Assembly (NCBI GenBank): GCA_029262195.1
Contig: JAJCZX010000014.1
Location: forward strand, 80,438-144,437
Origin: Gemmatimonadota bacterium
GTDB taxonomy: Bacteria > Gemmatimonadota > Gemmatimonadetes > Gemmatimonadales > GWC2-71-9
Reading direction: 5' to 3'
DNA: 64,000 nt
The notes below the pieces were generated by a model. That model had not been told where the DNA came from and did no database searches. It worked only from the letters and a program-made list of their open reading frames with translations. Positions 3,020 through 50,986 of this stretch are shown here, piece by piece (position 1 is the stretch's first letter; every line of letters begins with the position of its first letter). Made by a program: the position numbers and the translations under genes.

Positions 3020-3022
3020 CGA

Positions 3023-3381
3023 TGGAGGCGCGGGGATTCGAACCCCGGTCCGAACATCGATCCGAAACCGCCTCTACGTGCGTAGGTTGCGATTAAGGTC
3101 TCCACCGAATGGCCCGCAACCGGCCGGCCGGTGAACAAGCCTTCTTAAAAATCTCGCCGACCGCGCGAAGGCGACACGGTCAGCCAGCTCGAATTATTGA
3201 TACCCCTGGGGATGGCTCAAGCAACCATCGTCCGGAGCAGGTGCTTCAAGCGTTAAGCTTAAGCAGCCAATGCCATTTCATTGTTGGCAATTATAATTTC
3301 TCGATCGGTATTAACCAGGTAACCGAGAACCCTGGGCACGCAGCAATCACATCACAAAGCCCGTCGAAACCAGTCGCCCCC
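3023..3381 (-). ncRNA. ssrA: tmRNA, tag peptide (A)ANNEMALAA
   Basis: 5' GGGGGCGACTGGTTTCGACGG, 3' GGGGTTCGAATCCCCGCGCCTCCA; acceptor stem with G3-U alanine determinant; tag ORF GCC AAC AAT GAA ATG GCA TTG GCT GCT TAA at 3288-3259; CCA not encoded. Confidence 0.95.
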
Positions 3382-47140: not shown

Positions 47141-47841
47141 TTGTCAGCCAACTCCATAAATGCCTGTCCCATGGCGGGGCCGGTTGCTTCGTCTTCGTGT
47201 TTGAAGAAAACGTAGGCCTCCCCCCAATCCTGTGATCTTATTTTGTCTGCCCAGGCTGCAAGCTCGTCGGAAGTGTAGTCCTGACCTCTGAGCCGTAGGT
47301 AACCGAAATCAGCCGTTGGTTCCAGGTCGGCTTCAACTTTCGAATCTTCAGCGTCCACATGGACGAGGCAAACGTTCCGCTCCCTCAGGAAATCGTAAAC
47401 CTCGCCAACGAACCACGACTGATTCCGGAATTCCATTGCAATCCGCCAGCGCCGTGGAAATTGACCGAGAAAGTTGTTCAAACGAACGAGGTCCTTCTGG
47501 GAATAGGGGGGTAACTGGACGAGAGTCGGGCCAAGTCGCTCACCAAGCACAGCTGAGGTCCGCACAAAATAGTCGGTCGAATCAGGTTCCTCATCGAACG
47601 CCTTCCGATGGGTAATACGTTTGGACGTTTTCAGGACAAATTTGAAGTTTTCTGGAACTTGCTCGGTCCACTGCAACAACACACTTTCCTTCGGCATGCG
47701 GTAAAACGTGCTGTTGATTTCTACACACCCGAAATTTTCCGCGTAGTAGGAGAGGAATTGTTTTTGCGGCAATTTCTCCGGATAGAATTTTCCCTTCCAC
47801 TCCTTATATGCGAAACCGGAGGTGCCGGTGTGTATTTTCAC
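47137..47841 (-). CDS. DUF72 (YecE-like) protein
   Basis: GTSGFAYKEW, VEINSTFYR, QLPP, EFRNQSW, YLRLRG; GTG start overlapping the upstream stop. Confidence 0.9.
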   Translation of the reverse strand: MKIHTGTSGFAYKEWKGKFYPEKLPQKQFLSYYAENFGCVEINSTFYRMPKESVLLQWTEQVPENFKFVLKTSKRITHRKAFDEEPDSTDYFVRTSAVLGERLGPTLVQLPPYSQKDLVRLNNFLGQFPRRWRIAMEFRNQSWFVGEVYDFLRERNVCLVHVDAEDSKVEADLEPTADFGYLRLRGQDYTSDELAAWADKIRSQDWGEAYVFFKHEDEATGPAMGQAFMELADK

Positions 47842-48455
47842 TATAAGTATCCCTTGTCTTCCTTCATTGTCGTTTCCGAACGCCAACCAATATCCACCCG
47901 CTGTACCGGAGTGTCGCGCGAGTCCCGCGCCGCCCAGTAGTCCTCTATGAACCAGACTACCATCTCGGACACGCGCCCACCAAGTTGCGATAGATTCTGG
48001 TTACCAATCGACCCCAGGATACTCCCCGCCGACCAGGTTGGGGAATGCACGATTTTGGTCGTGTCTCGAGTCAATAAAGACATCTGCCGTAGCTCCAGCG
48101 TCATCCGGTAGATACTGAGGAACTGTGACACGCGGTTTAACTCGAACTTTACGACAAGTGACGGATTACCAATTAGCACCTGCCACTCTGGTTGTGCGAG
48201 GGTCGGAATGTTAGCCGCTGCGAGTTGTTCCTCGACAGTTTTTACGATCGAATCCGGGACCAACCCATCAGCGATGGCCGCGCTATCAATCCCTTCAACC
48301 TCGACGAAAACAGCCGGCACCGCAGCGAGACTCTTCGTGCTCATAGATGACCGCTGAGCGGAAACCTCCTGAGCAACGGCTGATTGCAATAATAGAGCCG
48401 CAAAAATAATTCCCAAATAGTCGAATCTGCCGGACGGGTAGCCTCTCTGGTTCAT
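47841..48455 (-). CDS. Hypothetical exported protein
   Basis: Hydrophobic N-terminal signal (AVA-Q); stop overlaps the DUF72 start; start uncertain. Confidence 0.6.
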   Translation of the reverse strand: MNQRGYPSGRFDYLGIIFAALLLQSAVAQEVSAQRSSMSTKSLAAVPAVFVEVEGIDSAAIADGLVPDSIVKTVEEQLAAANIPTLAQPEWQVLIGNPSLVVKFELNRVSQFLSIYRMTLELRQMSLLTRDTTKIVHSPTWSAGSILGSIGNQNLSQLGGRVSEMVVWFIEDYWAARDSRDTPVQRVDIGWRSETTMKEDKGYL

Positions 48456-48503
48456 TCTTAATTCTAAACTCCGCATTCTCAAATCGGCATTCTGTCGTTT
48501 ATC

Positions 48504-49106
48504 TTGAGGGTATACACAACCCACAGCCAATTGAATCCAAACACACCCGAAAACCCACTCGGCCTACCAGAGGAACCGTCGAGTCCTGTTGCGATAGTCG
48601 CCACCCAGGAACACCTGCAACTTCGGATATCCGAAACCGAAGACGAACGCACCCCTGAAGGGGCGACCTGCATGGTGACCTCCCTGGGGGACCGCACCAT
48701 CGCTCAGAGTATCGTGTCTCCCGAAGCGCTCCAGGACCTCGAAAACCGTGCCGTGTTCGAAGATCCACGCCAATTAGGTCTCGCAGCGGTTGCACAGGAA
48801 CCGGGGATTCAGGCGCGACTTTTTGCCTTGATTCCAGCGATTATCTTGAGGTCCGAGATCGAAGATGATGAAGAGAAGGAACCCTGGGCCTCTAGCGTCC
48901 CGAGCTTCGAGGAAGAACAAGAAAGAGCAGACATTGACCCAGACGAGCTTGTCCCCATTCTCCTTGGTCACATCGTCAGGTTCGAGAAAGACAGAAAGCA
49001 CCCCGAAGATCTTCCGTCAGAAGCAGCCGACATTCTCCAGTCCGTGGTTTCGGAGGAAAACCAGTTGAAGACGATTGTGGACAAAATGCTAGAGGATCTC
49101 TTTTAA
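48504..49106 (+). CDS. Hypothetical acidic cytoplasmic protein
   Basis: 200-aa ORF with protein-like composition, divergent from the previous operon. Confidence 0.65.
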   Translation: MRVYTTHSQLNPNTPENPLGLPEEPSSPVAIVATQEHLQLRISETEDERTPEGATCMVTSLGDRTIAQSIVSPEALQDLENRAVFEDPRQLGLAAVAQEPGIQARLFALIPAIILRSEIEDDEEKEPWASSVPSFEEEQERADIDPDELVPILLGHIVRFEKDRKHPEDLPSEAADILQSVVSEENQLKTIVDKMLEDLF

Positions 49107-49191
49107 ACCCCACCGTTTCGACCGATCGGTTTTCCACGCCGTGGAAAACTTACCCACGCCTTTTTATCCACAAATCAACATTCGTGGATAA
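49076..49191. promoter_or_regulatory. Cluster of DnaA-box-like 9-mers
   Basis: TTATCCACA (49164-72, perfect); TTATCCACG (rev 49183-91); TTTTCCACG (49130-38 and rev 49140-48); TTACCCACG (49150-58); TTGTCCACA (rev 49076-84). Confidence 0.7.
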
Positions 49192-49275
49192 ACCCGTTTT
49201 GTCCCTAAATAATAGGGCATACAGTCCACCCGACAATTCAACACAACAGCAACGGGACCGAAAAAACAGCGGCGC

Positions 49276-49303
49276 TTGCGTGTGCTGCTCCGGCCTCTAA
49301 GTT
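49276..49303 (+). promoter_or_regulatory. sigma70-like promoter for the candidate ncRNA
   Basis: TTGCGT-16 bp-TAAGTT. Confidence 0.5.
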
Positions 49304-49310
49304 GATAATC

Positions 49311-49728
49311 AAAGCGTTGGTCTTGGGAAGGACACGGTTTCAACCGGGTTACGCCAAAGCCAACGGGTTCAGGTGGGGAATTCCGGTTAGAACGCCGAGA
49401 ATTTAGGGCTCAGGTGTTCTGAGATCCGGGTGGCCACACCAGCCTGAGCAGATGGGGATTTTCGCAATCCCTGTCCATCCGGGGCCAGCGTTCCGGGATG
49501 CAGTGCGGGAAGACATCGCGAAAATGTCCAGACCCGCAGCGCCTTCGCCGGTGAAACAGATGACCGTGGCCCGGTTTTCTGCGGATGGAGGCCGGAGCTT
49601 CTGTTAGCCCTACCTGGACACATGTCAGGCGGCTACAGGGAGAAGAACGATGGGAGCGATCCCTCGGCTCCGGGTAACTGGTGAACGGGACGGTCGGCGG
49701 TTCTCTGGAACCGGCGACCGTTCTTTTT
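49311..49728 (+). ncRNA. Candidate large structured non-coding RNA (~420 nt), family unassigned
   Basis: About ten consecutive or nested helices with G-U pairs on the + strand, a GCGA tetraloop, an upstream promoter and a terminal terminator; no credible ORF. Confidence 0.6.
49687..49728 (+). terminator. Intrinsic terminator
   Basis: GGGACGGTCGGCGGTTC-TCTG-GAACCGGCGACCGTTCT followed by a T-tract. Confidence 0.8.
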
Positions 49729-49736
49729 CCGCCGAT

Positions 49737-49766
49737 TGTAACCACGCCTGGTATTCCCCGGTCTAA
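49737..49766 (+). promoter_or_regulatory. ECF-type (autoregulatory) promoter
   Basis: TGTAACC-N11-TCCCC-G-GTCTAA upstream of the ECF sigma; near-identical architecture at 50982. Confidence 0.7.
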
Positions 49767-49793
49767 CACGCGTAATGACTTTCGGGAGAACAT

Positions 49794-50336
49794 TTGAGCC
49801 ACAGAACTGATGAGCAGCTCGTCGTCGCAGTAGGAAAAGGCGACAAAGGTGCTCTTGGTATCCTATATGAGCGGCACCACCGGCGGGTTCATTCGTTGTG
49901 CTACAGGATGTCCGGCGACCCGGCAACTGCAGACGATCTCCTTCAAGAAACCTTCCTGAAGGTCCTGCGCCACGGGCGCGGATTCAAGTCGAAAGCAACG
50001 TTCACGACCTGGCTCTATCGCGTGACGCGGAATGTCTGCCTTGATCATCTGAACGCCGAAACCAGAAAACAGGAGCGCGCCGCCGAGTTAAGCCAGGCGG
50101 TGGAAATCGACATGCAGGTGCCCACAGCGAACCCCAATCTGGAAAAAATCCGAGAAGCTCTTTATCGATTGCCTCCGGACAAACGTGAGATACTCGTCCT
50201 GAGCCGTTACGAAGGTCTCAGTTACAAAGAGATAGCGGAGGTTTGTAGCACCACGGTCGGAGCAATAAAAGTACGAGCACATCGAGCCATCAGAGAACTA
50301 CGTAGAAATTATGAAGAGTTGGAGAATCTCACATGA
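49794..50336 (+). CDS. ECF RNA polymerase sigma factor
   Basis: ADDLLQETF, FTTWLYRVTRN, region 4 HTH GLSYKEIAE...GAIKVRAHRA; GGAG RBS before TTG. Confidence 0.93.
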   Translation: MSHRTDEQLVVAVGKGDKGALGILYERHHRRVHSLCYRMSGDPATADDLLQETFLKVLRHGRGFKSKATFTTWLYRVTRNVCLDHLNAETRKQERAAELSQAVEIDMQVPTANPNLEKIREALYRLPPDKREILVLSRYEGLSYKEIAEVCSTTVGAIKVRAHRAIRELRRNYEELENLT

Positions 50337-50986
50337 AATGTGAAAACGTACAGGACCTTATCGCAGATTCTTTGATGGATACGCTGCCCGCCGAAGAACA
50401 GCGCGATTTGGACTCCCACATCGCGACTTGTTCGGTCTGCGCCGAAGAGCTTTCGAAACTAACCCAACTCTGGTCAGGTCTGGCCGAGTTGCCGGCACCG
50501 CCAGTCCCGGCTGACTCCGCATTGAGGTTGGGCAAACACACAAACCCCGACCGAAGCTCGGCGACGACCCATTTGAAAAAAGCAGCCGGACTGGTCGGCC
50601 TTTTGTTGTTAAGCGGAGGCTATGGGTATCAGATGGGGGTGCGGCGAACGGGTCCTCCAGCAAACTCGGAAGGCACGTTCATAATGCTGGTCCGGGGTGA
50701 AGAGCAGAACCTAAGGGCTTCCGAAGAAACCCTCATGCAGGAGTATTCTGCCTGGGCGAACTCCCTGGCGGAACGCGGATTGTTTGCGGGAGGGGAAAAG
50801 CTCACGGATGAACCGGGGAGATGGGTTGCGTCAGCCACGGCGGGCGAGACCAGATCATCATCGGACATCTCGGGCTACTTCTTGATCACAGCTCGAAACT
50901 ACGATGAAGCGGTGGCCATCGCTAACGAGTCGCCGCATATCCGATACGGGGGGTCGTTCGAGATACGACAAATCGACGACCTGTAA
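50333..50986 (+). CDS. Anti-sigma factor: zf-HC2 (ZAS) + TM + YCII/DGPF-like domain
   Basis: HIATCSVC (HxxxCxxC); TM AAGLVGLLLLSGG; C-terminal GGEKL...ISGYFLITARNYDEAVAIA...GSFEIRQI. Confidence 0.8.
   Translation: MKCENVQDLIADSLMDTLPAEEQRDLDSHIATCSVCAEELSKLTQLWSGLAELPAPPVPADSALRLGKHTNPDRSSATTHLKKAAGLVGLLLLSGGYGYQMGVRRTGPPANSEGTFIMLVRGEEQNLRASEETLMQEYSAWANSLAERGLFAGGEKLTDEPGRWVASATAGETRSSSDISGYFLITARNYDEAVAIANESPHIRYGGSFEIRQIDDL

Follow-up and report, generated by a model that had tools for sequence, protein, structure and literature searches.

The window considered here, the whole 64,000-nucleotide (nt) stretch of Gemmatimonadota DNA that was analysed, contains about 690 nt without a credible gene between the end of an open reading frame (ORF) at 49106 and the start of an extracytoplasmic function (ECF) sigma factor gene at 49794. 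Within this intergenic space, at 49311-49728 on the + strand, lies what we consider, with a probability of roughly 0.85, to be the gene for a stand-alone, non-coding and highly structured RNA of ~418 nt that belongs to a family outside Rfam; its 5' end is estimated from the -10 box of the promoter. A first-pass annotation of the window had proposed a stand-alone large non-coding RNA (ncRNA), possibly of an undescribed class, and this proposal is borne out by the lack of an Rfam match, by covarying homologues, by the lack of a coding signal and by the failure of a reading as leader of the downstream genes.

The RNA unit carries its own promoter and its own intrinsic terminator in every copy. 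In the window, a sigma-70-type promoter at 49276-49303 (+) combines a -35 box TTGCGT (49276-49281), a 16-nt spacer and a -10 box TAAGTT (49298-49303), and aligns exactly with the strongly conserved CTTGCGCG...N16-17...TATATT of 61 upstream regions (the window and 60 relatives), the element of the relatives reading CGGCACTTGCGCG ... TATATT. The terminator at 49690-49728 (+) consists of a stem (49690-49703/49708-49721) in which 13/14 positions pair and one G-G mismatch remains, a 4-nt loop and a following TCTTTTT; in the relatives, a hairpin and a T-run of unrelated sequence stand at the same place. Both signals had been called in the first-pass annotation, and the comparison with relatives upholds them. 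The stretch also folds much better than shuffled sequence: the + strand from 49305 to 49735 has a minimum free energy of -195.8 kcal/mol, against a dinucleotide-shuffle mean of -168.2 (z = -4.07, equalled by 0/100 shuffles), the reverse strand of the stretch giving z = -3.26.

Further evidence comes from homologues. BLAST with a 441-nt stretch found matches in 25 of 61 related genomes (f3, 8/12), and in the window's own genome only the query itself, in single copy. When ~600 nt around 19 of these matches were aligned, conservation spanned the whole unit including the promoter, and RNAalifold predicted 111 pairs on 20 MAFFT-aligned copies, 66 of them with compensatory change. A profile built for nhmmer then gave 157 matches in 175 loci, 132 of them full-length, of which 131 were cut out; removal of sequences with >=93% identity left 61 copies, which together with the window copy form the 62-sequence alignment A3. 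This alignment was made by MAFFT, structure-blind and fitted to no structure. Its RNAalifold consensus comprises 110 pairs in 20 helices, and standard pairs occupy 95.3% of 6792 cells, against 34.4-45.6% when the partners are slid by 1-3 columns. Changes on both sides occur in 79 pairs and 811 cells, the slid controls yielding 32-39 pairs and 80-138 cells. The window copy itself forms 101 of the 110 consensus pairs. The stretch 49311-49728 thus displays conserved structure with compensatory change far above controls, by which a structured ncRNA gene is recognized. Read on the - strand, the consensus pairs are standard in 85.5% of cells rather than 95.3%, and G-U cells number 763 against 91 A-C cells; the RNA therefore lies on the + strand, as had first been argued from its many G-U pairs.

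Some observations weigh against an RNA gene and have to be set beside this result. The window promoter is weak by consensus, and a consensus scan listed neither the promoter at 49276-49303 nor the terminator at 49690-49728, so that on the single window sequence the case for an RNA is suggestive and unproven. The expression and the abundance of the RNA, like its ends, are inferred, the ends from the conserved promoter and terminator. Finally, the fact that 0/500 shuffles attain any of five covariation measures is not to be read as a probability, since the copies are kin and the shuffle control overstates significance; the slid-partner control, which retains this relatedness, is equally clear.

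By every membership test run, the RNA is neither a member nor a variant of a known family. With cmscan against all 4227 families of Rfam 15, the whole window gave at gathering thresholds a single match, tmRNA at 3020-3381 (-) with 168.6 bits, and none at the RNA locus. Under permissive filters at E <= 10, the segment 49150-49850 gave one chance match of 11.6 bits on the terminator hairpin, and two typical relatives (L109 and L016) gave at E <= 10 only hairpin-driven chance matches far below threshold. The bacterial RNase P model RF00010, with a gathering score of 100 bits, had zero matches at E <= 10 in 49150-49850; the true RNase P RNA of the genome (G000) is found on contig C21 at 91852-92217 with 313 bits, and its signal recognition particle (SRP) RNA on contig C7. 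In three sequences, namely the window copy, L109 and L016, cobalamin and other Rfam riboswitches and leaders went unmatched at E <= 10, and cmscan likewise gave no hit for OLE, GOLLD, ROOL, HEARO or raiA, models for these five being presumably present in Rfam 15. The first-pass annotation was thus correct in denying the locus the signatures of RNase P, SRP, thiamine pyrophosphate (TPP) and complete cobalamin RNAs and in placing tmRNA elsewhere in the window; the Rfam comparison that it had suggested as a check, run on the window copy and on two typical relatives, returned no family match, not even at E <= 10, and the homologue and covariation check produced many homologues and heavy covariation. 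A literature search found no description of such an RNA, which supplementary tables of RNA-discovery papers might nevertheless list, and a search within a 2026 preprint on prokaryotic non-coding sequence space gave no description either.

The structure deduced from the alignment is divided into four domains, all on the + strand, and comprises 20 helices as well as one pseudoknot or more. Domain 1 (49318-49362), the 5' hairpin made of H1-H3, contains a conserved GGGAAGG/ACGCC internal loop; this domain can be dispensed with, as the copy of a sister genome (L002 in G001) and the short-form paralogues lack it. Domain 2 (49367-49449), with helices H4-H8, encloses a near-invariant loop ...AAGGGCUCAGG... 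and GAUCC. Domain 3 (49451-49537) is formed by the hairpins H9 (49451-75) and H10 (49476-500) together with H11-H12 (49505-37); cells of H9, H10, H11 and H12 are paired at 99.6%, 99.8%, 97.6% and 96.5%, respectively, with compensatory change in 21 of 27 pairs. The loop of H10 (49487-91) pairs with the linker that precedes H13 (49539-43), giving a 5-bp pseudoknot supported by both pairing and compensatory change: its pairs are standard in 99.4% of 310 cells, against 19-63% with slid partners, and one pair alternates between C-G (37 sequences) and U-A (24), which makes 24 compensatory cells. The window copy retains four of the five pairs. It was the sole credible new helix to emerge when further pairings were sought with strict settings, an all-against-all comparison of columns having proved too permissive and been discarded.

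Domain 4 (49544-49685), the most conserved, comprises H13-H20, namely the closing helix H13 (49544-52/49677-85), H14-15, the invariant H16 (49590-97/49668-75) and H17-H20, and presents the near-invariant single-stranded runs GGUGAAC, GGGGAUGGAAG, GAAGAAGAAC and GGGUAAC. The conserved core of the RNA corresponds to H9-H20, i.e., the 3' two-thirds or ~270 nt, with its near-invariant single-stranded junction runs, the 5' domains being variable, or lacking altogether, among paralogues.

About half of the helices drawn in the first-pass annotation recur in this covariation structure. Its 5' hairpin at 49315-49365 is H1, GATGGGGAT/ATCCCTGTC is H9, CATCCGGG/CCGGGATG is H10, GCGG/CCGC around GACAT/ATGTC is H11-12, and CCTGGACA/TGTCAGG falls in the H19 region. 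The pair GGGA/TCCC lies inside H20, whereas the GNRA loop that it closes is peculiar to the window copy, the relatives having a loop of 6-7 nt. Three helices were wrong. In place of GAATTCCGG/CCGAGAATT, CCGGT at 49383-87 pairs with TCCGG at 49425-29 (H6); the 3' strand of GCTCAGG/CCTGAGC pairs with GTTCAG at 49367-72 (H4), with compensatory change in 6/6 pairs; and against the AACAGA/TCTGTT helix enclosing CCGGTTTTC/GGAGGCCGG, GGCCGGAG at 49590-97 pairs over a long range with CTCCGGGT at 49668-75 (H16). The two alternative long-range pairings, TAGGGCT/AGCCCTA and GTTAC/GTAAC, have no support in the covariation structure; a long-range AGGGC/GCCCU was tried and rejected, the GCCC strand being already engaged in the covarying H18, and is conceivable as a tertiary alternative. 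Conversely, the long-range helices had been missed, those unseen including H13, H16 and the pseudoknot 49487-91/49539-43.

The distribution of the RNA was surveyed with R1, a covariance model of the 155-position 3' domain, by which relatives keeping only other parts would be missed; search filters were stricter above 40 genomes, and the genome sets are samples in which "not found" does not amount to "absent". Of 151 genomes sampled across the phylum, 58 have an R1 match: 55/71 genomes of family f1 and 2/2 of family f3, against 0/31 of family f2 and 0/46 of nine further families. Positives occur only in two families of the order Gemmatimonadales, uncultured soil bacteria, several genera of which are negative. 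Five complete or near-complete f2 genomes searched by R1 with laxer filters also gave 0/5. Judging from its complete, few-contig genomes, f2 probably includes the cultured Gemmatimonadaceae; if so, the cultured group is the one in which the RNA was not found, which would account for its absence from curated libraries. A scan for an exact diagnostic pattern, with one genome taken for each species, retrieved at least 119 stretches, and among the matches listed R1 confirms 71 of 80. These 71 confirmed loci are all labelled Gemmatimonad-something except one "uncultured bacterium", and the nine unconfirmed loci among the matches listed, eight labelled as other phyla and one as Longimicrobiales, an order of the same phylum, look like chance. 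Two unpublished genomes are included, and no claim depends on either: G016 (locus L012) supplies a row in alignments A1-A3, in model R1 and in the protein alignment A4 of a neighbouring gene, and G099 (locus L225) enters the genome counts made with R1 and with that neighbouring protein.

Carrier genomes have 1-3 copies. At L111:3013-4137, two full RNA copies stand in tandem. In 19 secondary copies (L207-L225, mostly of genus g24), the profile match starts only at about position 95-140, in one case at 59; most of these short-form paralogues are without H1-H3 and most of domain 2 and keep H9-H20, the promoter and the terminator. Few full-length members diverge as far as the window copy, which scores 245 bits by nhmmer against up to 365 and has an R1 score of 128 against up to 177 bits. 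In G002, which belongs to the window's genus, a canonical copy is present and adjoins a gene for a protein of 206 amino acids (aa), and no canonical locus was found in the window's 92.6%-complete assembly. From these low scores and the canonical copy of G002, the window copy is read as a divergent paralogue.

The sequence upstream of the RNA is conserved beyond the promoter. The 61 upstream regions share ...TAACCCGAAGAAACATCGGCACTTGCGCG... running into the -35 box, TCCACA(N5)TGCACA and, farther upstream, an inverted pair TCCACA(N3-4)TGTGGA. In the window, a cluster of DnaA-box-like sites (49076-49191) precedes the promoter, with members at 49076-84 (-), 49164-72 (+) and 49183-91 (-). The site at 49164-72 is a perfect TTATCCACA, i.e., the DnaA box, and those at 49076 and 49183 have one mismatch each; these are three of the 13 DnaA-box-like matches of the window, gathered within 116 nt. 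At least two TCCACA/TGTGGA cores stand in the 150 nt upstream in 55 of the 61 regions, with a mean of 2.69 cores, compared with 0.14 for 150-nt windows drawn at random from the same loci, and a 9-mer within one mismatch of TTATCCACA occurs in 24/61 regions against 1.8% of background windows, counts that, the regions being homologous, show conservation and not independent enrichment. In short-form paralogues, elements of the sequences TGTGGAAA and GGATAA are present, oriented the other way. Ahead of the genes for tmRNA and RNase P RNA, the upstream motif was not found.

Transcription of the RNA may be tuned by DnaA, the obvious candidate, or by another factor acting at the conserved TCCACA-type boxes, a possibility to be taken seriously that we place somewhat short of even odds. 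Control by DnaA is made less attractive by the conserved TCCACA core, which is only part of the 9-mer, and by the frequency of such clusters: the window's genome has two places where three boxes fall within 300 nt, which is about the chance level by a rough estimate. Apart from the RNA locus, the only such place, counted with DnaA-box-like 9-mers of <=1 mismatch, is G000:C30:432504-432708.

The RNA is origin-proximal and not at the origin. For five genomes with long contigs, the distance between dnaA and the canonical copy is 40-196 kb. A location at oriC, to which the DnaA-box cluster, a local GC-skew plateau and a switch of gene strand at ~48.5-49.7 kb seemed to point, was rejected for the window's genome. 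The minimum of cumulative GC skew is found there on contig C21 at ~85-90 kb, adjoining dnaA (95249-95734, -) and the RNase P RNA gene (91852-92217, +), so that C21 at ~85-96 kb is likely the replication origin; on the window's contig (C14) the skew falls on beyond the window, and the plateau at 45-64 kb of the window is local. The same placement was rejected in G172, where the skew minimum is at dnaA, 40 kb from the RNA. The picture is less clear in G038, in which a broad minimum (~1030-1075 kb) extends from ~5 to 50 kb from the RNA and ends at dnaA, past which the skew rises.

Neighbouring genes were compared by clustering the ORFs (>=100 aa) that lie up to 2.5 kb away in 68 related loci. In 51 of them, a gene for the ~206-aa protein lies upstream on the same strand. 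This protein is single-copy and matches the RNA in its range at the level of families, being present in 70/71 genomes of f1, 2/2 of f3 and 0/77 of f2 and all other families. In f3 (G038 and G040), its gene is adjacent to the RNA, downstream and convergent; adjacency has therefore outlived rearrangement. Judged by eye from coordinates, nearly all genomes with both have an RNA copy within ~1 kb of the gene, with G077, G093 and also G174, whose RNA adjoins the end of its contig, as exceptions. The protein (L054:972-1592 (+) and relatives; alignment A4) has no Pfam or NCBIfam family and no credible sequence match in the PDB, the best being a designed repeat protein (E 1.8e-4, 44 residues). Its AlphaFold model is confident, having a predicted local distance difference test score (pLDDT) of 80.8 and a predicted template modelling score (pTM) of 0.74, with no Foldseek match in the PDB at E <= 0.001 and no usable one in the Atlas. 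Invariant residues include R16, R32, W53, D64, H67, R82, D112, R124, H130, R148, H154, R157, W158, W179, Y200 and E202. The window ORF at 48504-49106 was considered as a divergent copy of this protein and rejected (hhalign probability 0.3%).

Given this linkage, the 206-aa protein might be a functional partner of the RNA, which we regard as doubtful. Partnership is weakened because the window's genome and six f1 genomes break the linkage: in the former, 92.6% complete, no 206-aa protein was found even by a 31-sequence profile, and in the six, all without an R1 match, the protein is present with no RNA within ~2 kb. It counts further against a partner that the protein is not basic and has no recognizable family or fold.

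Other neighbours are less constant. Recurrent downstream genes vary among the 68 loci and are mostly on the opposite strand; judged from motifs in their translations, they would be a PlsB-like acyltransferase and an M48 peptidase. The ECF sigma gene of the window starts 66 nt past the terminator on the same strand and forms with the following gene an ECF/anti-sigma operon (49794-50986), in which the anti-sigma gene (50333-50986) fuses a zf-HC2 to a YCII domain; this pair is no general neighbour of the RNA, the ECF gene standing next to it in the window's genus alone. In the gap that separates the RNA terminator from the ECF sigma gene, 49738-49766 reads GTAACC, 17 nt and GTCTAA, which we take to resemble a self-regulated promoter of the ECF type. 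On the other side of the RNA, the ORFs at 48504-49106 (+) and 47841-48530 (-), of 200 and 229 aa, have no family match, and the first is very acidic.

What such an RNA might do can be approached only cautiously. We tentatively favor a scaffold acting in trans, which would be stable and specifically folded, the near-invariant junction nucleotides forming a binding site for a protein or a small ligand in the manner proposed for OLE and raiA-type RNAs; this is advanced by analogy and as a possibility. A conserved unit, a complex fold, invariant junctions, restriction to a lineage and dispensability together suggest that the three-dimensional shape would be the functional entity. Two considerations tell against such a role: the strongest functional clue is the gene neighbourhood, and the RNA was not found in 16 of the 71 sampled f1 genomes and is therefore not essential.

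Among the alternatives, a ribozyme or an RNA-only homo-oligomeric assembly of the ROOL, GOLLD or OLE-like kind survives best, though we consider it unlikely. Many invariant unpaired junction nucleotides, the pseudoknot and a size and complexity comparable to those of large ribozymes speak for it, and the near-invariant loops UCGCG of H9 and CGCGA of H12 are mutually complementary and partly self-complementary, which would allow kissing contacts. Ornate RNAs that form cages have been described (PMC12286853). Such a loop-loop contact is, however, without covariation because both loops are invariant, the window copy reads UCGCA, and no processing site or substrate of a ribozyme is evident. Less plausible still is a role of the RNA as the catalytic or scaffolding core of a ribonucleoprotein or RNA-only machine specific to the two uncultured families, its synthesis coupled through DnaA boxes to the initiation of replication and its action, in most genomes, joined to that of the 206-aa protein; we would regard it as a long shot.

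A trans-acting scaffold also has to be weighed against a very divergent version of a known RNA (6S, RNase P, a cobalamin riboswitch or a piece of a group I or II intron) that Rfam would have missed. The size is near that of RNase P RNA, and 6S RNA (RF00013), whose housekeeping role is thus left without an assigned RNA here, was detected neither at the locus nor in five Gemmatimonadales genomes (G000, G012, G038, G045 and G057). In each of these five, the SRP model has one match and 6S none, with or without the new RNA. The 6S RNA of Gemmatimonadales may be too divergent for the Rfam model, or missing. It is, however, equally undetected in f2, where the new RNA was not found, and the multi-branched fold of 20 helices in ~420 nt bears no likeness to a ~180-nt rod with a central bubble. 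Three divergent members match no Rfam family at E <= 10, the RNase P, tmRNA and SRP RNAs are encoded at other sites, and failure to find the RNA in 16/71 f1 genomes misfits the universal role of a housekeeping RNA. We hold this explanation to be very improbable.

An equally improbable proposal is that the RNA belongs to a mobile element, a prophage or a defence island, as a ROOL/GOLLD-like RNA or a guide RNA of an insertion sequence. The one to three copies per genome, the tandem at L111, the short forms at unrelated places and the patchy occurrence in f1 would fit. They are opposed by the conserved place, adjoining the 206-aa gene in 51/68 loci and at 40-196 kb from dnaA in five genomes, and by a search of 2.9 million viral contigs, which gave one pattern match, unconfirmed, and no true match. 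Moreover, 0/10 flanking window ORFs scanned against Pfam is a transposase, an integrase or a phage protein, the 206-aa protein being the only one of the recurrent neighbour clusters of related loci that was so scanned.

A long cis-acting leader, attenuator or riboswitch for the ECF sigma/anti-sigma operon at 49794-50986 has even less to recommend it and, for the RNA family, is largely refuted; the first-pass annotation, too, had held a long attenuator leader to be the less likely option. The window itself invites this explanation, as the ECF gene follows the terminator after 66 nt on the same strand, a terminator after a structure is the usual layout of an attenuator, and the sister-genome copy L002 has similar downstream sequence. 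Across the 68 loci, however, what lies downstream is not constant and mostly runs on the opposite strand, every copy has its own terminator, and no conserved alternative anti-terminator is evident; with ~420 nt and 20 helices the RNA far exceeds any riboswitch, and a motif that we take for an ECF-type promoter separates its terminator from the ECF gene.

Finally, that the locus codes for a small protein, for instance the 51-aa ORF at 49452-49607 (+) or the 130-aa ORF at 49410-49802 (-), is hardly credible: the long open frames here and in relatives (the longest per copy being of 82-134 codons) are expected from a G+C content of ~65%, and no coding signal was found in any reading frame by codon phase (flat variability of 0.175/0.202/0.200, without 3-nt periodicity), by gap runs (mostly not multiples of 3) or by the synonymous share of differences (19-21% in all six frames, in 25 randomly chosen of the 62 copies), the - strand ORF having no Pfam match and the substitutions following base pairs. 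The overlapping ORFs had been dismissed as spurious in the first-pass annotation, and the coding-potential check that it recommended agrees.

The RNA enlarges the small group of large orphan RNAs of bacteria, whose hallmarks it bears with its ~420 nt, 20 covarying helices, a pseudoknot and many invariant junction bases. To our knowledge, the classes of large bacterial RNAs with an intricate fold number only about a dozen, and we know of no solved class (RNase P, tmRNA, group I and II introns, the IscB guide RNA) that has not revealed new biochemistry. The phylum is abundant in soil and hardly cultured, which is probably why the RNA is absent from Rfam. Its narrow taxonomic range limits its significance. 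The alignment and the model open the RNA to direct testing, for which the DnaA-box-like elements of the promoter and the linked protein are the clues at hand.

Comparison with known systems helps to situate the new RNA. Type A RNase P RNA is similar in length and number of helices and has long-range helices, a pseudoknot, a stand-alone gene and an origin-near position. It differs in that the true copy of the genome is on C21 and in that the new RNA is not universal even within its own family; P4 and the other universal motifs of RNase P are, as far as we can judge, absent from it. ROOL and GOLLD are also ornate, several hundred nt long and sometimes multicopy, whereas the new RNA is chromosomal, syntenic, smaller and not found in viral contigs; ROOL and GOLLD are described as often carried by prophages and forming RNA-only cages (PMC12286853). 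The raiA motif is reported as a stand-alone structured ncRNA with pseudoknots and knock-out phenotypes (PMC10861870, PMC12968392). With it the new RNA shares a promoter and terminator of its own, a conserved intergenic place and a pseudoknot, but raiA, at ~200 nt, occurs in thousands of species of Bacillota and Actinomycetota, and the new RNA is twice that size, was found in only two families of Gemmatimonadales and is without an Rfam match. OLE, of ~610 nt, belongs to Bacillota and is encoded near the genes of its protein partners. Like the new RNA, it is a large bacterial ncRNA with many helices, a restricted lineage, heavy covariation and invariant junction nucleotides; unlike it, the new RNA has ~420 nt, belongs to another phylum, has no Rfam-level match and has no gene for a membrane-protein partner beside it, its 206-aa neighbour not being always present. 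The role of OLE is known only in outline, as its published account puts it (PMC3413148).

As a kind of object, the new RNA resembles the orphan large ornate RNAs OLE, raiA, ROOL and GOLLD, all of which are active targets of research.

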